From a virus: a stretch of 10,456 nucleotides of DNA. Numbering within the stretch: position 1 is the stretch's first letter; the number at the start of each line of letters is the position of its first letter. Of this stretch, positions 52 to 10,456 are shown piece by piece. The notes beneath the pieces are model-generated. The model saw nothing but the letters and a program-made list of their open reading frames with translations, was not told the DNA's origin and searched no databases. The stretch lies in IMG/VR virus record IMGVR_UViG_3300000494_000001, positions 1 to 10,456 of that record; one strand, given 5' to 3'. A program made the translations under genes and the position numbers.

Positions 52-654
52 TTATTTATTTTTTACTTCAACTATAAAATTATCATAACCTAATTTTTTT
101 AATTCATTAGATAGTTTAATTGCATTTTCTTTATTTTTAAATGCACCAACTTGAACACGATATAAAATATTATTTTCAGTAGTTTTATTGTTTTTTATTC
201 TATCAATAAATGTATTCCATGTAATAGGTTTACCACTTCTAATATTAGCAGGGCAATTTTTACCACTCCATTTATTATGTTGAACAACATTCTCAATAGA
301 TATATTATGTTTATTCATTAGATATTTTACTAATTCAATAGTATTTTCAATAGTTTTATTAAAATCACCATCACTATTTACACACATTTCAATTCCTATA
401 CTATTTAAGTTACCATCACCCCTGCCATCTCCACAATGCCAACATTGAACACTATCCTCATAATGTTGAATAATCTGCTTATCATCTACTGTATAATGCC
501 ATGTAGCATTACTACCATTATTAATATATTTAGCATGATTTAAAGCATTAGCACCTTTATTTATGTTACCTGTTTCATGTATGGTAATATATTTACATTT
601 ATTAATTCCTGTATAGTGATTTTTATTATTAGATAACATTTTGGTAATTTTCAT
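52..654 (-). CDS. Endolysin: N-acetylmuramoyl-L-alanine amidase (Amidase_2/PGRP fold) with C-terminal SPOR peptidoglycan-binding domain
   Basis: N-terminal motifs ITIHETGN, WHYTVDD, WHCGDG and NSIGIEMC, plus HNKWSGKNC (His-x7-Cys, the Zn-ligand spacing of T7-lysozyme-type amidases). C-terminal YRVQVGAFKNKENAIKLSNELKKLGY is a classic SPOR signature. ATG at 654 follows a GGGGTG RBS and overlaps the upstream stop (TAATG). The last 3 codons and the stop lie inside the ITR. Confidence 0.9.
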   Translation of the reverse strand: MKITKMLSNNKNHYTGINKCKYITIHETGNINKGANALNHAKYINNGSNATWHYTVDDKQIIQHYEDSVQCWHCGDGRGDGNLNSIGIEMCVNSDGDFNKTIENTIELVKYLMNKHNISIENVVQHNKWSGKNCPANIRSGKPITWNTFIDRIKNNKTTENNILYRVQVGAFKNKENAIKLSNELKKLGYDNFIVEVKNK

Positions 655-1667
655 TATACAAACACCCCATTTCTTAATAAATTTTTAATTTCTTCTTGTT
701 CTTGATTAGTTGCATTAGTTTCCAATACTATTTTATCACATTCTATATAGCCTGCATAATCTCCAATTCTACCATATTCAACTACTGAACCACCAAAAAT
801 ATTATTATCTTTAGTATATGGTATATTTCTATTTACTTCTATAAAACATCTATTAATTTTATTCTTATAAACATTACTAATACTATTAATAACATTACCA
901 TTAGATTTTTGAATAAATGGTATATTCATACCTATTAAGCCTTGAACACTTGCAACTATTTCATTATTAAAACTGCTTTTAATATTAGCTGTTAAAGTAC
1001 CACTATATAATTCTATGGTAAATGTTATAGTCAATTTTTGTCCTATAACATATTCAGTATTTAGATAAACCTTATCTAAAAATGGTAAATGTAAAATACA
1101 TTCAGTATTAATAAAATCATATATATTATTATATTTTAAAGGTACTTCAATTTCTCCACCGTCAATATCGAATGAATAAGTTGATATTAAGGTACTTTCT
1201 ACCCCACTATCAAAAGTACCTAATAATATATTGCTTTTATCACCTAAAATATCATTAGGAATATCAAAAGGCAATATATATAATGAAGTAATAAACTGTC
1301 CATAATCTACAATTTGCAACCCATCTGTATAAAAGCGTGCTTTAGATAATTCTGTTAGTTCTGATTGATTAGTTTTATATAGATTAACAAAAGTTCCTAA
1401 CTGTTCAACATCTTTAGTGGCAATATAATCATCATCTAAATAAAAATTAAAATTTAAATCACTTGTTCCAATTGATTTTTGTAAATAAGTTCCATAGTTA
1501 TTAATTTCATAAGTAAACCCGCCCCTTCTATAACTATATGCACCCTTAAAAGTATAGCCATCATTAGCAGTTATAATAATATTTTTACCTGCTTCTAAAA
1601 AATCACCATTTGAATAATTACAAGTAGCATTAACAATAGTTCCTGTTATATAAACCCTTCCTGCCAT
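654..1667 (-). CDS. Tail knob/tube protein, C-terminal portion (phi29 gp9-like); may be fused to the upstream ORF by a frameshift
   Basis: C-terminus GYIECDKIVLETNATNQEQEEIKNLLRNGVFV resembles the recalled phi29 gp9 C-terminus ([32 protein letters not shown]). I prefer the ATG at 1667 (MAGRVY...) because it follows an AGGGGG RBS and sits just after the upstream stop. The ORF-track start at 1691 lies inside the upstream gene. Confidence 0.5.
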   Translation of the reverse strand: MAGRVYITGTIVNATCNYSNGDFLEAGKNIIITANDGYTFKGAYSYRRGGFTYEINNYGTYLQKSIGTSDLNFNFYLDDDYIATKDVEQLGTFVNLYKTNQSELTELSKARFYTDGLQIVDYGQFITSLYILPFDIPNDILGDKSNILLGTFDSGVESTLISTYSFDIDGGEIEVPLKYNNIYDFINTECILHLPFLDKVYLNTEYVIGQKLTITFTIELYSGTLTANIKSSFNNEIVASVQGLIGMNIPFIQKSNGNVINSISNVYKNKINRCFIEVNRNIPYTKDNNIFGGSVVEYGRIGDYAGYIECDKIVLETNATNQEQEEIKNLLRNGVFV

Positions 1668-1669
1668 TA

Positions 1670-2101
1670 TTATACGCCCCCTATAGTACATAAAATAGTT
1701 GTTTTAACATCTTCAAAAACAACATTTGAATTATATATATTACTCTCTTTTCTTACTTCACTTGAATAATCAAAATCATAATAATTATTATAATTTGTAT
1801 GTCTTGTAATATTACCGTATGAATTTAATATATCATCTTTAAAACTCATTAGTACATCACATTTTAAAGTTAAATGATATATTTTATTAGGAAATACTTC
1901 AACTGTTTCAATAAAATAATATCTTTTAAATTTATCTATATATACATAATTAAAATTTATTAAATCATCATATTTTAGTACTATTATAGGATTGTAAATA
2001 TTAACTTCATCTTTAAATTTAACATCTATATCAGTAACAAAATCAATAACCTTGTTTATAGTATTTACACTACTTTCAGTATTATAAGCCTTAACAATCA
2101 T
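1670..2101 (-). CDS. Tail knob/tube protein, N-terminal portion (phi29 gp9 N-domain-like)
   Basis: FNYVYIDKFKRYYFIETVEVFPNKIYHLTLKCDVLMSFKDDI parallels the recalled phi29 gp9 N-terminal segment (SYIMFQN..WFYAFVTELEF..VTYVHFEIDVLQTWMFDI). The ORF-track start at 2110 is a GTG. The ATG at 2101 (MIVKAYN) is preceded by a TAGGAGTGG RBS at about 8 nt. Confidence 0.45.
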   Translation of the reverse strand: MIVKAYNTESSVNTINKVIDFVTDIDVKFKDEVNIYNPIIVLKYDDLINFNYVYIDKFKRYYFIETVEVFPNKIYHLTLKCDVLMSFKDDILNSYGNITRHTNYNNYYDFDYSSEVRKESNIYNSNVVFEDVKTTILCTIGGV

Positions 2102-2115
2102 TAATACCACTCCTA

Positions 2116-2156
2116 TATTAAAATAGGGTAGTAGTGATTGTTAATCACCACTACCC
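2116..2156 (-). terminator. Rho-independent terminator/attenuator downstream of the capsid gene
   Basis: In minus-strand sense: GGGUAGUGGUGAU-UAACA-AUCACUACUACCC, a 13-bp stem followed by UAUUUUAAUAU. The one non-Watson-Crick pair is G.U in the minus-sense RNA but A.C in the opposite sense, which supports function in the sense transcript. Confidence 0.6.
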
Positions 2157-2172
2157 AAGTTCAATTTATTTA

Positions 2173-3381
2173 CTACTCCCCATTTACATTTCCATTTTTA
2201 TCTTCATATGCCATAAAGAATACTACAAAATTTTCGTTCAAGTCATTAAAATAACCTGCGTCAAATTTGAAATAGTTGTTGAAAAATTCTGCTTTAGCAT
2301 TATAGTTAGTTGTTACCCTTCTATCCAAATTAGTAACACCTAATGCCTCTCTATCAAACATTACTGCTAAAATACCACTAATATTAACTATTCTATTTTT
2401 AGTTCCATCTTTAGTCAGCTTTACATTGATAGATGAAATATCTTCAAATGAATAGTTTTGTCCACTACCCTGCCAATATGGTATAGTATCAGCTTTAGGC
2501 AACTCAACCAATTCTTTATTAAATGTATTAGCCTGTAGATAAACATTTGCAGCAGCTTTAAAATCTGAAAGCATAACAATATTCAGCTTATCTTTAGGCG
2601 TAAATCTCTCTTTACCACCAACATTAAATAGAGTTGAAATTTTAGTCAGTCTATCAGCATAAAGGTTAATGGTATAGGTAGCATATTTTATAAAACCTTC
2701 ATCTGACAATGCTTTATCTGGCGTCAGAGTAGTTCCGTTCAAATCATTATATTGTTTCAACAGGTTTACTGCTTTAATTCCTGTTTTATCTGCGTATGTT
2801 TCCCCAACACCCAATGGAATATCATGGTAAACAGTTTCAGCAATCATATTATTGATAGTTCTCATAATCAGACTATCAATTTTAATAGTCATGCTGTTTT
2901 CAACTGCATTATAAAGCATTGACAAAAAGCCATTCAATTGATTAGCATTTGTAAAACTTTCTTTAACCTGTCTTTCTGTAAAACTCATAGGTACTTCAAA
3001 AGTAACTCTCTTATTGAAGAATTTAGCACTTACAGAAGGTTTATAAAAAATATCTTGATTATAGGTTTCACCATTTACCAAATCCCAACTATCATTTTCT
3101 ATAGCCTGTGGAATATCTGCCTGTATTTTCTCTAATACACTTCCAAATTCCCAACTGTCCATTAGAACACTAGGAATATTACCGCTATATGGACGGTTAA
3201 CAAAAACAGTTTTACCTACTTTATTTACCAATGATTTTACATAGTTGTCAACACTCACATTATCAAATAGTTCTGTTCCTACATCTACAACATTAGATAA
3301 ATCTTCCTGAAGCAAATCCGATTTTCCCAGCAATTCATTTGTAATACTATTCACCAAATTATAAATTTGTTCAACTTTCAT
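2173..3381 (-). CDS. Major capsid protein (phi29 gp8-like, HK97-fold expected)
   Basis: Size (about 402 aa), its position between the morphogenesis genes and the tail knob, the terminator immediately downstream, and an N-terminal pattern resembling phi29 gp8 as I recall it. The ORF-track start at 3399 is a TTG overlapping the upstream stop. The ATG at 3381 (MKVEQIYN) follows an AAAGGAG RBS at 8 nt. Confidence 0.7.
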   Translation of the reverse strand: MKVEQIYNLVNSITNELLGKSDLLQEDLSNVVDVGTELFDNVSVDNYVKSLVNKVGKTVFVNRPYSGNIPSVLMDSWEFGSVLEKIQADIPQAIENDSWDLVNGETYNQDIFYKPSVSAKFFNKRVTFEVPMSFTERQVKESFTNANQLNGFLSMLYNAVENSMTIKIDSLIMRTINNMIAETVYHDIPLGVGETYADKTGIKAVNLLKQYNDLNGTTLTPDKALSDEGFIKYATYTINLYADRLTKISTLFNVGGKERFTPKDKLNIVMLSDFKAAANVYLQANTFNKELVELPKADTIPYWQGSGQNYSFEDISSINVKLTKDGTKNRIVNISGILAVMFDREALGVTNLDRRVTTNYNAKAEFFNNYFKFDAGYFNDLNENFVVFFMAYEDKNGNVNGE

Positions 3382-3395
3382 CTTAATAACTCCTT

Positions 3396-3941
3396 TCAAT
3401 TTAAAATATTTAAAGTAACAACACTATTTACATCCGTTATCATTATATTATAAATATTAAAATCTGTCAAATACCTATTGACTTTATCATAGAAGTCCAC
3501 TTCTTTTATTTTAGTTCTTATAATTTCTTTATTACCTTCATTACCTGTTACTATGTTTTCAACTGTAGTATTTTCATCATTATTAATAAAATCTTCATCA
3601 TTATAAGCACTTACTTTATTAGTATCAGTTCTAGTATTATCAGTAGTCATATTACTAGTTGATAGTTCTGTAATAGTTTCCTTATAATTTGTTAGTAGAT
3701 TTTCACTATCCAAATAATTTAATATAATGTTATTCCACTTATGCATAAATTGATTATTTAAAATACTAGCAAGTTCATTAAGTTCTAGGTTTTCAACTAT
3801 TTCTGCAACTTCTCTATTGCCATACATATTAATATAGTATTTATCTAGTAACTTACTATCTACAAAATTAAATATATCCTGCCCCGGCTGTAGTTCATCC
3901 ATAGTTTCAAATAGATTAGTTAAACATTCTTTTACTTTCAT
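3396..3941 (-). CDS. Hypothetical morphogenesis protein (candidate scaffolding protein by position directly upstream of the capsid gene)
   Basis: 181-aa ORF with a helical N-terminal half and an acidic, N/T/D-rich low-complexity centre. Its ATG overlaps the upstream stop (ATGA) and follows a TAGGAGTGAG RBS. I recognise no family. Confidence 0.55.
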   Translation of the reverse strand: MKVKECLTNLFETMDELQPGQDIFNFVDSKLLDKYYINMYGNREVAEIVENLELNELASILNNQFMHKWNNIILNYLDSENLLTNYKETITELSTSNMTTDNTRTDTNKVSAYNDEDFINNDENTTVENIVTGNEGNKEIIRTKIKEVDFYDKVNRYLTDFNIYNIMITDVNSVVTLNILN

Positions 3942-4429
3942 CTTCTCACTCCTATTCTTAATTTTCTATTATTAATATCAATCATCATTTTAAATACTTG
4001 TAATTCATTCTTTACCTTTACTATATTAGGTATAAATCTTCTTAAACTATCAGCACTTAAAAAATATGTTAGGAAAAATTCCATGCTTTCAGCTATTTTA
4101 TATAGGGTATATAATTCAGTTGCCATTATTGATAGTCTTTTTAAATCACTTGATAACATATTTAGTTTCATAATCATATCATTAGTTTTATTATTAAATT
4201 CACTAAAAAATATATGAAGTTCAGCCCTGTTTACTTTTAACATTCTATCAAAATTTCTTTTTACTGTATTCAAAGGAAATTCAATAGTAGAAATATATTG
4301 ACTTACAATGTATGCGTTGCTATCATCAACACTATTTAGAATATTTATTAATTGATTTAAACTATTTTCTAATATAGTACATGATGAATAGGATTGATAC
4401 ATATTATTTTTTACTGCTGTTAAACTCAT
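3938..4429 (-). CDS. Hypothetical structural/morphogenesis protein (predicted largely helical; possible head-tail adaptor/lower-collar substitute)
   Basis: 163-aa ORF preceded by an AAGGAGAGGG RBS and translationally coupled to the next gene. I recognise no motif. The functional suggestion rests only on its position after the portal gene. Confidence 0.5.
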   Translation of the reverse strand: MSLTAVKNNMYQSYSSCTILENSLNQLINILNSVDDSNAYIVSQYISTIEFPLNTVKRNFDRMLKVNRAELHIFFSEFNNKTNDMIMKLNMLSSDLKRLSIMATELYTLYKIAESMEFFLTYFLSADSLRRFIPNIVKVKNELQVFKMMIDINNRKLRIGVRR

Positions 4430-4483: not shown

Positions 4484-5467
4484 TCATCTTCTTCCAGCAG
4501 GTGCTTCATCAGCAGGTGCTTCATCAGCAGGTGCTTCATCAGCAGGTGCTTCATCAATGTTTTCTATATTAGTATCTTTATCTTGATTTAAACTAGTTAT
4601 ATAACTAATATTTTCAAGGCTTCTAATATTCCAACTACTATTAAAATCTACTGTTATATCTAAACCAAATAAACGGTTTATTTCTTCTAATGCCCTTCTT
4701 CTACTGTTTAGCATATCATCAACTAATGGATATAAACTATCTGAATTAGTTGTAAATTCTTCTTTAGTAATTCTTTCTTTTTTCATGTTATAGTTAGCAC
4801 TTAAACCAATTTCATTATAAAAACTTGCTTTTATATATTGCTCAAATTCAATTAAATCTCTTAATGTTCCTCTATAATCTGTATTAGGATTGACTTTTAA
4901 GCCATCGAATAATTTAGTTTCAGCTATTACCCCTTGTTTACCATCAAATATATTTTTTAAGAATAGTTCGGCACTCCTAACAGTATTATCATCATTAGCA
5001 CTAATTAAAGTTGTATATCTTTTATTAACATTTGCTAATATCATTGTTATCATATTTTCATTTAGTATAAATGCATATCTTTGAAACAATGGTAGAAGTC
5101 CAACATTACAACTATCATTACTAATAACAATACAATCTTTATTAATATCTAATGTATTATTATAGTTCAATGCAGGTATAGAAACAGTTGCTTTAGTTGG
5201 TCTATTATATACATCAGGCTCTCCACCTAAACCACCATTTACAACATAAAAATCATTACCAATTTTTAGAAATATAGCAAACCCATTTGTTTGCAATAAT
5301 ATCTCAAGTTCTTTAGAAGGTATTGTTTCTGGTAAATTATTATACTTAAACATAGCATTAGTACGATTAAGCATATAAGCAATAGTATTTTTAATATTTG
5401 TTTCTTTATCCATATAATCAAAATCCCTTGATTTACTGCCTATAAAATACTTATCTACTTTAGCCAT
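4484..5467 (-). CDS. Portal / upper collar (connector) protein, phi29 gp10 family
   Basis: Collinear motif matches to phi29 gp10 as recalled: YNNLPETIPSKELE (W.NLPPTI..LE), GEPDVYN (QRDVYN), ISNDS, LISANDDNTV (LIRANDNNQ), NMKKERITKEE (NLEKKERMVTDE) and INRLFGLDITVDF (INELYGLNVKVKF). The ATG at 5467 (MAKVDKY) follows an AAGGGAG RBS and overlaps the holin stop. The ORF-track start at 5494 lies inside the holin gene. Confidence 0.85.
   Translation of the reverse strand: MAKVDKYFIGSKSRDFDYMDKETNIKNTIAYMLNRTNAMFKYNNLPETIPSKELEILLQTNGFAIFLKIGNDFYVVNGGLGGEPDVYNRPTKATVSIPALNYNNTLDINKDCIVISNDSCNVGLLPLFQRYAFILNENMITMILANVNKRYTTLISANDDNTVRSAELFLKNIFDGKQGVIAETKLFDGLKVNPNTDYRGTLRDLIEFEQYIKASFYNEIGLSANYNMKKERITKEEFTTNSDSLYPLVDDMLNSRRRALEEINRLFGLDITVDFNSSWNIRSLENISYITSLNQDKDTNIENIDEAPADEAPADEAPADEAPAGRR
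4496..4555. repeat. Perfect 15-bp tandem repeat x4 (AGCAGGTGCTTCATC on plus strand) encoding (DEAPA)4 at the portal C-terminus
   Basis: Four identical head-to-tail units at 4496-4510, 4511-4525, 4526-4540 and 4541-4555. The unit length is a multiple of 3. Confidence 0.95.
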
Positions 5468-5669
5468 TTTTTGTACTCCCTTCTTTATTTTCAAGTCTTA
5501 CACATAATTCTTTTAATGTTAATGTATTATTTTCAATTACTTTAGTTAGTTCCTTCATTTGTTTATCATATCTTTCGTCTTGCTTCCAGTTCTGATAGAA
5601 TAATGCTATTGATACGGCAATAGGAAAACCTAGCCCGTTAATTAGTTGCATGATTGTTTCAAAATTCAT
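5460..5669 (-). CDS. Holin-like protein, BhlA/UviB family
   Basis: 69 aa with a single N-terminal TM segment (GLGFPIAVSIALFY) followed by a charged coiled-coil tail. The LFY...K...E.Y pattern and the roughly 70-aa length match BhlA/UviB holins of Bacillus and Clostridium elements. RBS is AGAGGGA. Confidence 0.6.
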   Translation of the reverse strand: MNFETIMQLINGLGFPIAVSIALFYQNWKQDERYDKQMKELTKVIENNTLTLKELCVRLENKEGSTKNG

Positions 5670-5681
5670 TTAAATCCCTCT

Positions 5682-6782
5682 TTATAAGTTTTTACATATT
5701 TTTAGGTAGTTGTTAATAGCATCCCCAACTTCATTATTTTGATAAAATACTTTATCATTAACAAAAAACCATAATAATCTTTTCTGTAAAGTATTTATCG
5801 GCTTGTATATACTTCTATTATAATTCAATTTATGAGAAGGTTCAAGGCTATAAATTAAATCATTATCTTCATCTTGTATATCTGTAGTTTTAATATGAAT
5901 ATAGGTAAACATTTCGCCATCAACTTCTATGACATTACATTGATATATTTTATCATTAAATTTTATAAAATACCTAAATAAAACATCTTTAGGCTTATAT
6001 TTTACGGGTAAATGAGGATATAGATTTAATTCCCATGCCCCGCTTGTAATCATGTTTAATTTAGGATTGTTAAAGGCAAAATAATAATTATTTTCTTTAC
6101 TGCCTTTCATACTTTCACAATATTCAACTGCTACTGTCAATTCACTTGTTCCATAAGTATAAACATCTATAGTACCTTGTTTCATTTTATCAATATGCGT
6201 TAAACCCATTTCAGCAAAATAAGGGCAATATTTATTAACTGTATTGCCCAACATAAAGATTTTTACATTAGTTCTTTGTCTTATTATTGTGCTAATTGTA
6301 TTCATAAATAATACAAACTCATCTTGTAAATAGGTAAATTTAGTTAGAAATTCATCAAATAATATAGTAGTAACTCTAGGATATGATATACTTTTATTAT
6401 GTTCTGTATCTGATAAAGCAAAAACATAACCTATACAATCATTATCAGAATATAAAGGTTTTCCATTATCAGCATATTTACAAACATAGAATTTACCTGC
6501 ATAATAAGTAATACCTTCATATTCTCCATTACTTGCTTTTTTCACTTCTCCATTATAATTTAAGGCACTAAACATATCACTAGCCCTTTTACCTGTAATA
6601 TCTTCCTTCCACCTTCTTATAATTGCCATTTGTCCACCTGTTTTAAAATATTGTTCAATACCATATTTTAAAACTGCATAAGTTTTACCATTACTTCTTT
6701 CACCAAATATAACATTGTAAACACAATTCTTTCTTAAAATATTATCTAAACTATAATATTTTAGTTCCTGTTTTCTAGCCAT
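5682..6782 (-). CDS. DNA encapsidation (packaging) ATPase, phi29 gp16 family
   Basis: Walker A is FGERSNGKTY and Walker B is VTTILFDEF, followed by IFMLGNTVN..PYF. These are collinear with phi29 gp16 (GARGIGKSY / STIVFDEF / CLSNAVSVVNPYF, as recalled). Confidence 0.9.
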   Translation of the reverse strand: MARKQELKYYSLDNILRKNCVYNVIFGERSNGKTYAVLKYGIEQYFKTGGQMAIIRRWKEDITGKRASDMFSALNYNGEVKKASNGEYEGITYYAGKFYVCKYADNGKPLYSDNDCIGYVFALSDTEHNKSISYPRVTTILFDEFLTKFTYLQDEFVLFMNTISTIIRQRTNVKIFMLGNTVNKYCPYFAEMGLTHIDKMKQGTIDVYTYGTSELTVAVEYCESMKGSKENNYYFAFNNPKLNMITSGAWELNLYPHLPVKYKPKDVLFRYFIKFNDKIYQCNVIEVDGEMFTYIHIKTTDIQDEDNDLIYSLEPSHKLNYNRSIYKPINTLQKRLLWFFVNDKVFYQNNEVGDAINNYLKICKNL

Positions 6783-6784
6783 AA

Positions 6785-8911
6785 TTAAACACCCTTTCTA
6801 TTTTTAAATAAATAACCTTCTCTAAAATCTTTTAAAAATTTACCATATTGTTTACTAATTGATAAAGTAAATTCACACTTATCTAAATGAATACATGAGG
6901 GTATATAAATATCTTCAACATTTCCCTGATAATCTATTGATTGTATTCTCATTTCTTCATCAATATAAGTATGAGTATTTTTACCTGTTTCATCAGCAGG
7001 TATATAAAGTTCATCATTGAACATATCAAACACCTTTTCATAATCATTATTACATACCCTTTTCATATATTCAATGCCATTCTTTTTAGATAGTCCAGCA
7101 ACAGTTAAAGCTAATTCCCCATTATCATATCTAACTAAATATCTTTTAGCACCTAATGTTTTAAAATGCGTATAATGTCCGTCATAATCCCATACCCCCA
7201 TCATTTTTTCAATTCCTTCTTTAGTTTTAGGCTTCATTAAATTAAAATCAATTTTTCTAAAATTACACATCTTTTTTAACTTCTCAACTAAATTTTTATT
7301 ATACCATTCAATATATGGTATATGTTTTTCATAGTTTAATAATTTAACACTATCAGTATCACTATATACATAATCTTCCCCAATGTTTAAAATACCACTC
7401 CATAAATTACGCCTTGCATATGCTGTAACCCATACACCCCACGGATAATATAAAAACCTGTTCGGACTATTATTATATGTTTCTATCTGTTTTTCAATTT
7501 CTCCATCACTAGGTTTAATAATATTCCATTCTTCATTATATTCTATTAATTCCCTTACTATATCAGTAACCGTCATTCCATAAACACTATTAAGCATACC
7601 TTTAGATAATAAATATTCTACTTCATATCCTTCAACCCCTTTTAAAGTTGTTTTATTCTGATATAACTCTAATATGCTTTCTATTATAGGTTTAGGTAGA
7701 TACTGCATATAAAATTTATAGCAATTTGCTATTTCTACACTATCCCATGAATAACATTGTTTTAATATTTTATAGTCTATATCGGTAATAGTTGTTATAA
7801 TTTCATCTGCTTGATATATCCTGCCATTGTTAACTATTGCATTTTTTTGACTAAAACATTTACTTTCACTTAAATAGCTTTCATACGTTAGTTTAGAATG
7901 TAACCCCTTAATTTTAATATCAAACATTAACCCAACATCTTCATTCCTTACTAAATCTTCAAAATTTTCCTTTCTTAAATCAACTTTTATCGGTTTACTC
8001 ATTGGATACTTTTCAGCTAACATAACGCTAGGATAACTACTTGTAAAATCTATACTTGTAACATCTTCTAATGTTTTACCTACATACTTTAAACTAGCAT
8101 GAGTAAACCCGCCCATAAAACACCTTTTTAGCATTACATATTCATCTAATGATAGTGTCAGTTCTTTCATTAATTCTCTATATCTGTTATACTTCCCTTT
8201 ACTGCTTTTATTATGATTTTTGTCTGTAAAGTAACATTTCTCTTTTACGAATTTTCTCACCCTTCCTGTATTAGTTAAAGGTATTTTAGTAATGTTATTA
8301 TCATATAATTGTATCTGCTCATTGATATAATATAGAATAATTAAAATATCATTCTTACAATATGCCATTTCTTCATCTGATAAAACAGTTTTACTATTTC
8401 TTATTAATGAATAATCTAAATCACCCACTAGCTTTTTAATCTTATGTTTAGTTAAATTTTTAGCCAAATTAGCCAATGAATAGCCGCTTAATATATAACT
8501 ATCTCTAAATTCTACACCTTGTTTTATTACTGCTTTTATTGGTTTTCTTTCTTCCGTTGAAAATACATTTTCCCATTCAAAAAATTTTCTCATGAATTGA
8601 AATTCATAGCCTAAATTATGAACATATATAATTAGCCTATTATATAAATTGAGTTCTAATTGATTAATTAACATCTGCATAAATTCGCCAAACTGTTCCC
8701 ATGTTCTACCATAGTAAACAGTTTCACCAATTCCAAACATCCATATATACATATAGGCACACTTTTCACCATTATATAACTGTGAAGTTGTTTCTATATC
8801 AAAAGCACATTCAATATTATAATACTTAATTACCTGTTTGCTATGAATATTATAATATGATACTGTTTTATAATCTTCTTTATTTAATTTCATATTCTGA
8901 TACCATAGCAT
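6785..8911 (-). CDS. Protein-primed family-B DNA polymerase
   Basis: Exo I AFDIETT, Exo II YVHNLGYEFQF, Exo III YCKNDILI, YxGG-like FMGGFTH, motif A DFTSSYPS, motif B KGMLNSVYG, motif C YVYSDTDS and KxY GAKRY. All are in the canonical order and match the phi29/PRD1/adenovirus-type protein-primed subgroup. GAGGTGG RBS. Confidence 0.95.
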   Translation of the reverse strand: MLWYQNMKLNKEDYKTVSYYNIHSKQVIKYYNIECAFDIETTSQLYNGEKCAYMYIWMFGIGETVYYGRTWEQFGEFMQMLINQLELNLYNRLIIYVHNLGYEFQFMRKFFEWENVFSTEERKPIKAVIKQGVEFRDSYILSGYSLANLAKNLTKHKIKKLVGDLDYSLIRNSKTVLSDEEMAYCKNDILIILYYINEQIQLYDNNITKIPLTNTGRVRKFVKEKCYFTDKNHNKSSKGKYNRYRELMKELTLSLDEYVMLKRCFMGGFTHASLKYVGKTLEDVTSIDFTSSYPSVMLAEKYPMSKPIKVDLRKENFEDLVRNEDVGLMFDIKIKGLHSKLTYESYLSESKCFSQKNAIVNNGRIYQADEIITTITDIDYKILKQCYSWDSVEIANCYKFYMQYLPKPIIESILELYQNKTTLKGVEGYEVEYLLSKGMLNSVYGMTVTDIVRELIEYNEEWNIIKPSDGEIEKQIETYNNSPNRFLYYPWGVWVTAYARRNLWSGILNIGEDYVYSDTDSVKLLNYEKHIPYIEWYNKNLVEKLKKMCNFRKIDFNLMKPKTKEGIEKMMGVWDYDGHYTHFKTLGAKRYLVRYDNGELALTVAGLSKKNGIEYMKRVCNNDYEKVFDMFNDELYIPADETGKNTHTYIDEEMRIQSIDYQGNVEDIYIPSCIHLDKCEFTLSISKQYGKFLKDFREGYLFKNRKGV

Positions 8912-9509: not shown

Positions 9510-9534
9510 TATTAAACCCCCTTTAACCTTTCAA

Positions 9535-10394: not shown

Positions 10395-10456
10395 AAAATA
10401 AATAATGTTTCACGTGAAACAATTTTAGTTGCAAATATTTGATGAAATTATTTTGT
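10395..10456. repeat. Right inverted terminal repeat (62 bp)
   Basis: Exact reverse complement of 1..62. It contains the mirrored palindromes at 10407..10420 and 10432..10441. Confidence 0.95.

Follow-up and report, generated by a model that had tools for sequence, protein, structure and literature searches.

A tail knob split between two genes was described in Astrithrvirus-like phages by Evseev et al. (2024; PMC11476376) and, as cited there, by Pourcel et al. (2024, J Virol, doi 10.1128/jvi.00667-24). The known cases are Salmonella phages astrithr/Astrid (gp09 and gp10), Acinetobacter phage Phanie (gp9 and gp10) as well as Pectobacterium phage DU_PP_III. HHpred and AlphaFold results were reported for the knobs of Astrid, Phanie and DU_PP_III, together with AF3 6+6 models for DU_PP_III and Astrid (PMC11476376). 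Further, Ig-like domains were described at the N-terminus of the C-part of the split knob, and a Gram-negative host was proposed as the context of the split (PMC11476376).

Here we analyzed a pair of adjacent ORFs, ORF1 and ORF2, in a stretch of viral DNA of 10,456 bp (the window, by which we mean this whole stretch). We conclude that the window is an ordinary further case of the split already described, and not a frameshift or a sequencing error.

Gene layout of the locus

The window appears to be the complete 10.5-kb genome of a protein-primed podophage belonging to the Astrithrvirus-like branch of the phi29-like phages. The record has inverted terminal repeats and a GC content of 25%, and genes for PolB, the packaging ATPase and the upper collar are also present in it. 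When the whole window was compared with GenBank phages by megablast, only a 5% match was obtained, in the packaging ATPase gene. ORF1 follows the Phi29_MCP gene (3399..2173), and ORF2 is followed by an endolysin gene of the Amidase_2+SPOR type (654..52), whose ATG at 654 has one base in common with the ORF2 stop codon. The features of the locus are as follows.

2126..2156, minus strand: terminator-like hairpin (14-bp stem and T-rich tail) in the gap that separates ORF1 from the major capsid gene
2101..1670, minus strand: ORF1, 143 aa from ATG 2101; stop TAA 1672..1670
1677..1682, minus strand: AGGGGG, the Gly-Gly codons of ORF1 (GGG GGC) and Shine-Dalgarno sequence of ORF2
1665..1672, minus strand: stop-start junction TAA TA ATG, read from the sequence
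1667..654, minus strand: ORF2, 337 aa; start ATG 1667..1665; stop TAA 656..654
1398..1667, minus strand: all-beta (Ig-like) module at the N-terminus of ORF2 (aa 1-90), in the AF2 model
654..1385, minus strand: conserved C-terminal part of ORF2, aa 95-337, from tblastn and alignments

The terminator-like sites amounted to two overlapping calls on the one hairpin (2126..2156), compared with 0.2 expected in shuffles. This putative hairpin may reduce how strongly the knob and lysis genes are expressed compared with the capsid gene.

ORF2 is in the -1 frame relative to ORF1 and its ATG lies 2 nt past the ORF1 stop, just after which ORF1 has a second in-frame TAA (1669..1667). The ORF listing of the minus strand also holds alternative starts, namely GTG 2110 for ORF1 (146 aa) and ATG 1691 for ORF2 (345 aa). 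Both frames are open across 1670..1691 (22 nt), and the minus strand reads GGGGG at 1681..1677. The first-pass annotation had reported ORFs of 143/146 and 337/345 aa, their overlap at 1670..1691 and the G5 run at 1677..1681, all of which were confirmed from the sequence, as was its remark that one extra G at the run gives a continuous reading (...CTIGGRIIMAGRVY...). However, the 22-nt double-open stretch carries no weight, because no ribosome-binding site (RBS) was found ahead of ATG 1691, unlike ATG 1667, and because ORF2 homologues start at MAGRV... and not at the upstream extension from ATG 1691.

The AGGGGG motif sits 9 nt ahead of the ORF2 ATG 1667. ORF1 has its own RBS, AGGAGTGG, 5 nt ahead of ATG 2101, and a similar G-rich motif was present ahead of the start codon in every gene of the window. 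The GGG GGC within AGGGGG encodes Gly-Gly in the conserved ...TIGGV C-terminus of ORF1, in which alignment A1 shows G141, and alignment A4 both G141 and G142, as nearly invariant. The G5 run had been regarded as a rare homopolymer, but the window contains three GGGGG compared with 3.65 +/- 2.33 expected from dinucleotide shuffles, and another of the three (9521..9517) lies 7 nt ahead of a start codon. The run is statistically ordinary in this window and is fully explained by the RBS and the Gly-Gly codons.

Similarity of ORF1 and ORF2 to tail knobs

Pfam and PHROGs scans of ORF1 gave nothing useful, and a PDB search with the single ORF1 sequence gave no match. The ORF1-family profile (alignment A1) matched residues 43-152 of PDB 4eo2_A, the tail-knob N-domain of phage C1 (E 6.4e-4), and this was its sole PDB match at E <= 10. 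Using hhalign, ORF1 residues 45-91 were aligned to residues 70-121 of gp9 (E 0.017). Foldseek with the AF2 model of ORF1 (pLDDT 78; residues 1-95 above 87) detected 5fb5, 5fb4, 4eo2 and 8egs at probability 0.57-0.97, the values for 5fb5, 5fb4 and 4eo2 being 0.96-0.97. The top Foldseek matches were the SaPI1 neck protein and XkdH; therefore, the fold of ORF1 is common to tail-tube, terminator and stopper proteins generally. A Pfam scan of 29 members of the ORF1 family yielded a single Caud_tail_N match (the Phanie homologue, E 0.004, below the cut-off), and none was found in a six-frame search of the genome with PF16838 (Caud_tail_N). The relation of ORF1 to Caud_tail_N is best described as a predicted remote homology, not as membership by the curated Pfam threshold. 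At this remote-homology level, the resemblance of ORF1 to the gp9 N-domain proposed in the first-pass annotation is borne out by the 4eo2, Foldseek and hhalign matches, and we assign ORF1 as the probable counterpart of that domain, a firmer assignment than that of ORF2 below.

For ORF2, tblastn matched residues 95-337 to the gene that follows the N-part in the Astrithrvirus group (E 3e-25 to 4e-31). When its AF2 model (pLDDT 83.5) was compared with BFVD using Foldseek, the Astrid 568-aa protein (E 1e-28) and a 'Major tail protein' (E 4.5e-4) were detected. Further, hhalign placed ORF2 residues 198-228 on gp9 343-373 and residues 307-335 on gp9 553-581 (E-values of 0.04 and 0.36), and four hhalign segments of ORF1 and ORF2 were collinear with the gp9 family, in the expected order. 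Pfam, PHROGs and PDB sequence searches of ORF2 gave no match, nor did a search of the PDB with the ORF2-family profile. A six-frame search of the genome with PF20934 (phi29_gp9_C) found none, and Foldseek of the ORF2 model against the PDB returned only chance lectin-like matches. The earlier claim of a gp9-like C-terminus for ORF2 gains from the collinear segments, the BFVD match and the published results (PMC11476376), but taken by itself the link to the gp9 C-domain is weak. We assign ORF2 as a putative tail-knob C-part ('major part').

Residues 4-82 of the ORF2 AF2 model consist of strands only (pLDDT 87-95). Relatives are longer at the N-terminus by 0 to about 210 residues, with the ITGT..NCTCNYSDGE module repeated in some of this extra length, and the copy number of the predicted Ig-like module appears to differ among relatives. 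The C-terminal part is common to Astrithrvirus gp10 and to fused proteins (P0297 207-380 and P0001 235-539 align), and it holds invariant and nearly invariant columns in the ORF2-family alignment. In alignment A2, ORF2 and its close relatives show a gap where P0001 and L013 carry a Gly/Ala/Val-rich insertion of ~60 residues.

The fused proteins P0001 (539 aa; L015, 2252-3871) and P0297 (382 aa) occur naturally. In each, an ORF1-like N-domain (E 1e-12 and 3e-28, respectively) precedes an ORF2-like C-part (E 9e-8 and 1.5e-27), as in gp9. A Phi29_MCP gene lies upstream of the P0001 gene, and a single 200-aa ORF separates the two. That both parts are held in one chain in this order argues against reading ORF1 and ORF2 as two unrelated tail genes, the former a tail-tube, stopper or adaptor protein of a generic kind, the latter a receptor-binding tail protein, with neither derived from gp9. 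Such a reading would fit the lack of Pfam matches to Caud_tail_N or phi29_gp9_C, the SaPI1 neck protein and XkdH as top matches of ORF1, and the lack of a PDB match for ORF2. We consider it unlikely, however, since the sole PDB match of the ORF1-family profile is the C1 tail-knob N-domain, the four hhalign segments follow gp9, BFVD offers a 'Major tail protein' for ORF2, and the published HHpred and AlphaFold analyses of the Astrid, Phanie and DU_PP_III knobs (PMC11476376) also speak against it.

The junction in related phages

ORF1 homologues formed 159 clusters at 90% identity, nearly all of 142-147 aa, and 4002 cluster representatives were obtained at 50% identity (E <= 1e-3); among the best 149 of these 4002, 140 were stand-alone proteins of 120-169 aa. 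More than 100 close homologues, independently assembled, all ended at about 143 aa, at the same residue as ORF1. The gene order MCP, ~145-aa gene, abutting larger gene and endolysin was found in Salmonella phage astrithr, Acinetobacter phage Phanie and Vibrio phage K58 g2, and the junction between an ORF1 homologue and an abutting gene was found in about 80 metagenomic loci. The split thus appears to be an old, lineage-wide arrangement common to thousands of related tiny phages. The first-pass annotation had taken the two ORFs for one protein cut in two: they do jointly equal one tail knob, but the word 'cut' is misleading for a split that seems ancient and lineage-wide.

Three mechanisms had been offered for the junction, namely a programmed -1 frameshift, a genuinely split gene in which translation begins anew at ATG 1667 with AGGGGG as the RBS, and an under-called homopolymer, with conservation of the G-run and of the frame in relatives as a check. 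In 71 distinct junctions, the downstream gene was in frame 0, +1 or -1 in 16, 26 and 29 cases, respectively, and the gap ranged from -8 to +13 nt. An SD-like motif was present 4-18 nt ahead of the downstream start in 66 of the 71. A run of at least five G was present in 27 and absent in 44; it was also seen where the two genes are in the same frame and a slip would fuse nothing (8 of 16 such junctions). The TAA-TA-ATG junction was shared with close relatives (L008, L019, L020, L021, L022, L025 and L029); the nearest relatives also have it, with GGA GGT, GGT GGT or GGG AGT in place of G5. The first two are synonymous in the ORF1 frame and the third changes Gly to Ser, and the extension in the ORF2 frame is altered.

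These observations bear on a programmed -1 frameshift, in which some ribosomes would slip on A GGG GGC and produce a ~483-aa fusion beside the separate proteins. ORF2 is indeed in the -1 frame and open from 1691, the G5 run is inside the overlap, and the naturally occurring fusions show that a knob can work as one chain. However, A GGG GGC departs from the canonical X XXY YYZ heptamer in having A ahead of GGG (zero frame ATA GGG GGC), and the A-site triplet is G-rich. Further, the downstream 87 nt have an MFE of -12.2 kcal/mol compared with -11.6 +/- 2.3 for shuffles (z = -0.25), that is, no stimulatory fold. The genes of relatives are separate, their frame relation varies, the G-run is not conserved and is missing even from the nearest relatives with an identical TAA-TA-ATG, the extension in the ORF2 frame lacks conservation at the protein level, and the RBS and Gly-Gly codons leave nothing of the G-run to be accounted for. 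We therefore regard a programmed frameshift as very improbable. We give just as little credence to the narrower proposal that, in the sub-lineage combining the -1 frame with G5 (the window, L020, L021 and L025), a minor slip on GGG GGC adds a few fused knob subunits.

The remaining mechanism, a sequencing or assembly error hiding a true G6 and a single ~483-aa gene, draws on the error-proneness of homopolymers on some platforms and on the continuous frame that one added G restores. Against this, the more than 100 homologues ending at the same residue were assembled independently, close relatives without the homopolymer (GGAGGT, GGTGGT or GGGAGT) have separate genes with the same stop and downstream start, and the run is followed by a double TAA TAA and a well-placed RBS and ATG. 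An error of this kind is hardly credible. Restart from the AGGGGG RBS and ATG 1667 was thus the only one of the three mechanisms that fitted the data.

A probable two-gene tail knob

Considering the observed gene layout, its conservation, the RBS pattern and the remote tail-knob homology, ORF1 and ORF2 are very probably two separate genes that jointly form a two-gene tail knob, with ORF2 translated from ATG 1667. The role of the single phi29 gp9 protein would be shared out between two adjacent genes, in which ORF1 (143 aa) would provide the N-terminal tail-tube-like ring domain, and ORF2 (337 aa) a single Ig-like module and, after it, the conserved distal knob domain. Each would be made as a protein of its own from a single late transcript, with ORF2 initiated at ATG 1667 through the AGGGGG Shine-Dalgarno sequence inside the Gly-Gly codons of ORF1. 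We infer translational coupling at the TAA TA ATG junction and a 6:6 assembly; the coupling would favor equimolar subunits and thereby a 6+6 knob, in which the disordered C-terminal 45 residues of ORF1 may fold against ORF2.

The lineage was found in anaerobic-digester and fermentation metagenomes, and the best matches of its endolysin in bacterial genomes were almost all from Bacillota. These relatives of the endolysin, together with the GC content of 25%, point indirectly to a Gram-positive host, probably a low-GC member of that phylum. Since this lineage probably infects low-GC Bacillota, the split knob may not be confined to phages of Gram-negative hosts, a proposition that we consider likelier than the minor slip product discussed above. 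Adaptation to Gram-negative hosts would thereby become a less persuasive explanation of the split.

For annotation of these very small phages, the ~145-aa gene behind the capsid gene and the one that follows it should be named the N-part and C-part of the tail knob, and pairs of the ORF1/ORF2 type should be neither merged nor 'repaired' nor marked as frameshifts. The published picture, drawn from a handful of isolates, is now extended to thousands of protein clusters, and the free variation of the junction frame and an RBS built into Gly-Gly codons are added to it. The known picture of the mechanism is unchanged by these results.

Comparison with known systems

The locus resembles phage tail -1 frameshift sites (e.g., lambda G/GT) in that the tail ORFs are adjacent, the second is in the -1 frame and the open frames overlap briefly. 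Unlike the lambda G/GT type, it has no canonical slippery heptamer, stimulatory structure or conserved frame or site, and ORF2 has its own RBS and start codon.

Like phi29 gp9 (5FB4/5FB5), gp12 of streptococcal phage C1 (4EO2) and the knob of Staphylococcus phage Andhra (8EGS), the locus is predicted to encode an N-terminal tail-tube-like domain, here in ORF1. The C-terminal motif ...Y.Q...C.I.G..NN.DL.EI...F..GI.. of the phi29 gp9 type has its putative counterpart in the ORF2 C-terminus, and the position in the late operon after the capsid genes is shared. In contrast, the phi29 gp9, C1 and Andhra knobs are single polypeptides of ~580-600 aa, whereas the window has two genes split by TAA TA ATG, and Caud_tail_N and phi29_gp9_C of Pfam are below threshold for ORF1 and ORF2. 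Further, ORF2 lacks the long hydrophobic Gly/Ala-rich loop that is present in P0001 and L013 and resembles the membrane-penetrating loop of gp9. The fused relatives P0001 and P0297 likewise have an ORF1-like N-domain and then an ORF2-like C-part, but as a single chain with no Ig-like module between the parts, and P0001 adds the hydrophobic loop.

The window differs from the Astrithrvirus-like phages in being much more AT-rich (25% GC) and in its probably Gram-positive host, whereas the literature links their split to Gram-negative hosts. ORF2 is the shortest C-part seen, with 337 aa and one Ig-like module, the astrithr and Phanie counterparts having 568 and 854 aa, respectively. Otherwise the locus is like their split knob: the gene order (MCP, ~145-aa N-part, abutting C-part and endolysin) is the same, the C-part has one or more Ig-like modules at its N-terminus, ORF2 residues 95-337 are 29-33% identical to the C-terminus of the large protein, and ORF1, whose homologues include astrithr gp09, Phanie gp9 and K58g2 gene 0006, is 26-29% identical over its full length to the N-parts.

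Genome organization around ORF1 and ORF2

The window, a complete IMG/VR virus record of 10,456 bp, has inverted terminal repeats at its ends and a GC content of about 25%, and all of its substantial ORFs are located on the minus strand.

Features of the window (minus strand)
9521..9517: G5 run, followed after 7 nt by the ATG of a 194-aa gene, candidate terminal protein
8911..6785: PolB, protein-primed type
6782..5682: packaging ATPase
5494..4484: upper collar/portal (Phage_connector, E 4e-19)
Between upper collar/portal and major capsid in the gene list: two small ORFs
3399..2173: major capsid protein, Phi29-type (Phi29_MCP, E 2e-58)
2156..2126: strong terminator-like hairpin in the capsid gene/ORF1 interval (14-bp stem, 6 GC pairs, T-rich tail)
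Between major capsid and endolysin in the gene list: ORF1 and ORF2, an adjacent pair
654..52: endolysin, Amidase_2+SPOR

The ORF2 stop codon and the endolysin ATG overlap by one base (TAATG, 656..652). The hairpin lies inside an otherwise single-looking, co-oriented operon, and it may lower expression of the distal block (ORF1 onward).

Each inverted terminal repeat contains one copy of a perfect 14-bp palindrome, GTTTCACGTGAAAC (37-50 and 10407-10420; 0 expected), and further copies are found in loci of distant relatives.

Copies of the palindrome in distant relatives
L011: 890-903 and 2944-2957
L031: 669-682
L066: 1144-1157
L191: 922-935

Internal copies lie immediately 3' of the stop codon of the ORF1 homologue in L011 and L066, and the L031 copy lies 19 nt upstream of the start of the ORF1 homologue. 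Because copies are also internal in distant relatives, the distribution of the sequence points to a protein-binding or regulatory site that is conserved in the phage group and is more than an origin element.

ORF1 and ORF2 as probably separately translated genes

ORF1 starts at ATG 2101, encodes 143 aa and ends with TAA at 1672..1670. ORF2 starts at ATG 1667, encodes 337 aa and lies in the -1 frame, which is open upstream to an ATG at 1691. The minus-strand junction reads ...TGT ACT ATA GGG GGC GTA TAA TA ATG GCA GGA AGG GTT..., with GGGGG at 1681..1677, and insertion of one G would give CTIGGRIIMAGRVY. The first-pass annotation, which proposed a single gp9-like gene cut in two, was therefore right about the two-frame layout and the G5 run; the run itself was statistically ordinary (3 GGGGG in the window vs 3.65 +/- 2.33 in shuffles). 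It offered a programmed -1 frameshift, an under-called homopolymer (G6) or a real split in which the second gene restarts from a ribosome-binding site of its own.

The same gene order, namely a capsid gene, a 144-147-aa gene, an abutting 386-854-aa gene and an endolysin, was found in the phages astrithr (Salmonella), Phanie (Acinetobacter) and K58 g2 (Vibrio). A search of 5.8 billion proteins yielded 159 ORF1 homologues, and the 120 listed were 51-95% identical, with lengths of 142-147 aa in nearly all cases. When 1.84 billion cluster representatives were searched exhaustively with HMMER, 4002 matched at E <= 1e-3, with a length of 120-169 aa in 140 of the best 149. None of the best 120 ORF2 homologues possessed an ORF1-like N-terminus. 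The split is no local accident of the window genome.

We compared the junctions of the window, three GenBank phages, IMG/VR loci and 80 metagenome loci, which comprised 71 distinct sequences. The downstream gene was in the same frame in 16, the +1 frame in 26 and the -1 frame in 29, and the intergenic gap ranged from -8 to +13 nt. Runs of at least five Gs were present in 27/71 junctions and were just as frequent in same-frame junctions (8/16), where slippage could fuse nothing. The nearest relatives (ORF1 84-95% identical) keep ...TIGGV TAA TA ATG, and Gly-Gly is spelled GGA GGT in L008, L019 and L022. It is GGT GGT in L007, L017 and L018, where the junction is in the +1 frame, and GGG AGT in L029, which changes Gly to Ser. 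Except for that in L029, these spellings leave the ORF1 protein unchanged, and the changes alter the extension that would be read in the ORF2 frame. An under-called homopolymer was rejected because the same stop exists in relatives in which no homopolymer does. A programmed frameshift was likewise rejected because it requires a conserved frame and site, neither of which was found; further, A GGG GGC does not match a canonical slippery heptamer, and the 87 nt downstream did not fold more stably than shuffles (z = -0.25).

The remaining proposal, a genuinely split gene, was correct, as indicated by the varied frames among the junctions and by the G-rich motif (AGGGGG) located 9 nt before ATG 1667. 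G-rich Shine-Dalgarno motifs precede every gene start in the window genome (AAGGGGT, AGGTGG, AAGGGGG, GAGGTGG, AGGAG...), and none was detected upstream of the alternative ATG 1691. The run at 9521..9517, one of the other two in the window, serves the 194-aa gene as a ribosome-binding site like that of ORF2. Among the 71 junctions, 66 have an SD-like G-rich motif 4-18 nt upstream of the downstream start. In alignments of the ORF1 family, G141 (A1) or both G141 and G142 (A4) are near-invariant, and relatives without Gly-Gly at the ORF1 C-terminus have GGAGG or GGGGG in a 10-13-nt spacer instead. ORF1 and ORF2 are most likely subunits of one structure that are produced by ordinary translational coupling. 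Ribosomes terminating on ORF1 would meet the ribosome-binding site within the last ORF1 codons and would then initiate ORF2 at the ATG 2 nt past the ORF1 stop.

In the distant loci L011 (2501-3097), L066 and L091, a 146-aa ORF1 homologue precedes the palindrome and a 51-aa ORF, no large C-part gene follows, and the C-part must be elsewhere or missing. In a minority of the ORF1 family (243-511 aa; P0308, P0354, P0363, P0367, P0373 and P0379), extra domains lie N-terminal to the knob N-part, including an internal tandem repeat in P0308 and GWY-type repeats in P0354. Either knob half can thus carry accessory domains.

Similarity of ORF1 and ORF2 to tail-knob proteins

Neither ORF had a direct sequence match in Pfam, PHROGs or the PDB. 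At the family level, ORF1 profile A1 matched residues 43-152 of the C1 tail knob (4eo2_A) at E 6.4e-4. In the AF2 model of ORF1, residues 1-95 form a beta core predicted with confidence, and the C-terminal ~45 residues are disordered. Foldseek matched this model to the SaPI1 neck, XkdH, phi29 gp9 (5fb5, 5fb4, 5fei), C1 gp12 and the Andhra knob, with probabilities up to 0.97 and weak E-values. Profile-profile alignment with the gp9 family (27 members) yielded four short segments, collinear as a split gp9 predicts.

Segments aligned with gp9
ORF1 45-53: gp9 70-78
ORF1 61-91: gp9 91-121
ORF2 198-228: gp9 343-373
ORF2 307-335: gp9 553-581

The ORF2 model (pLDDT 83.5) had no match in the PDB, and in BFVD it matched the Astrid protein of 568 aa (E 1e-28) and an entry named 'Major tail protein' (E 4.5e-4). 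Two homologues, P0001 (a 539-aa ORF in L015, with a Phi29_MCP gene upstream and one 200-aa ORF between) and P0297 (382 aa), contain both knob parts in a single chain, ordered as in ORF1-ORF2. The identification of ORF1 as a remote homologue of the N-terminal part of gp9 is thus firmly supported by family-level evidence, Foldseek and profile alignment. That of ORF2 as a gp9-like C-part is supported less strongly, through weak profile signals, the fused relatives and the literature. The assignment of both to the tail knob is reasonable.

Domain architecture of ORF2

With 337 aa and one Ig-like module, ORF2 is the most compact C-part among those compared; close relatives have additional or duplicated modules and are 424-556 aa long. 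Those that are 44-88% identical (P0003-P0121) form four length classes, of about 337, 424-440, 470-510 and 525-556 aa, which differ by N-terminal extensions, some being tandem copies of the same ~90-aa module (ITGT..NCTCNYSDGE...). This array looks fast-evolving and is probably receptor-binding. In P0001 and the L013 C-part (2055-4100), a ~60-residue Gly/Ala/Val-rich hydrophobic insertion sits between an IPFIQ motif and a FIEV..R motif and resembles, at the same position, the membrane-penetrating loop of phi29 gp9. In contrast, ORF2 and its close relatives do not possess an equivalent hydrophobic Gly/Ala-rich loop; pLDDT is below 50 in the insertion region (aa ~255-337; window 654-900).

Comparison with known split-knob phages

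The nearest bacterial-genome matches of the endolysin are almost all Bacillota, the best being a Clostridiaceae MAG (60% identity), followed by Oceanobacillus, Paenibacillus, Lysinibacillus and Oscillospiraceae. Because of these matches and the GC content of 25%, the host is probably a low-GC Gram-positive bacterium. No appendage or tail-fibre gene was seen in the window genome. The cultivated relative Phanie is described as a satellite, with virions that have to bind the tail of a helper myophage (Pourcel et al. 2024, via PMC11476376); since the window similarly shows no such gene, helper dependence is worth considering by analogy.

The same arrangement was already described by Evseev et al. 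2024 (PMC11476376), who extended the work of Pourcel et al. 2024. In their account of Astrithrvirus-related phi29-like phages, the knob is apparently a hexamer of a two-protein unit, in which one protein is the counterpart of the p9 N-terminal part and the other, after a variable number of Ig-like domains, that of the C-terminal part. The split is proposed there to have arisen with insertion of these Ig-like domains in an ancestor infecting Gram-negative bacteria (PMC11476376). This kind of split knob is therefore already published, and the window adds a new uncultivated member with the most compact C-part of those compared. Its differences are modest: ORF2 lacks the hydrophobic loop, and, unlike the cultivated Astrithrvirus-like phages of Gram-negative hosts, the phage probably has a Gram-positive host.
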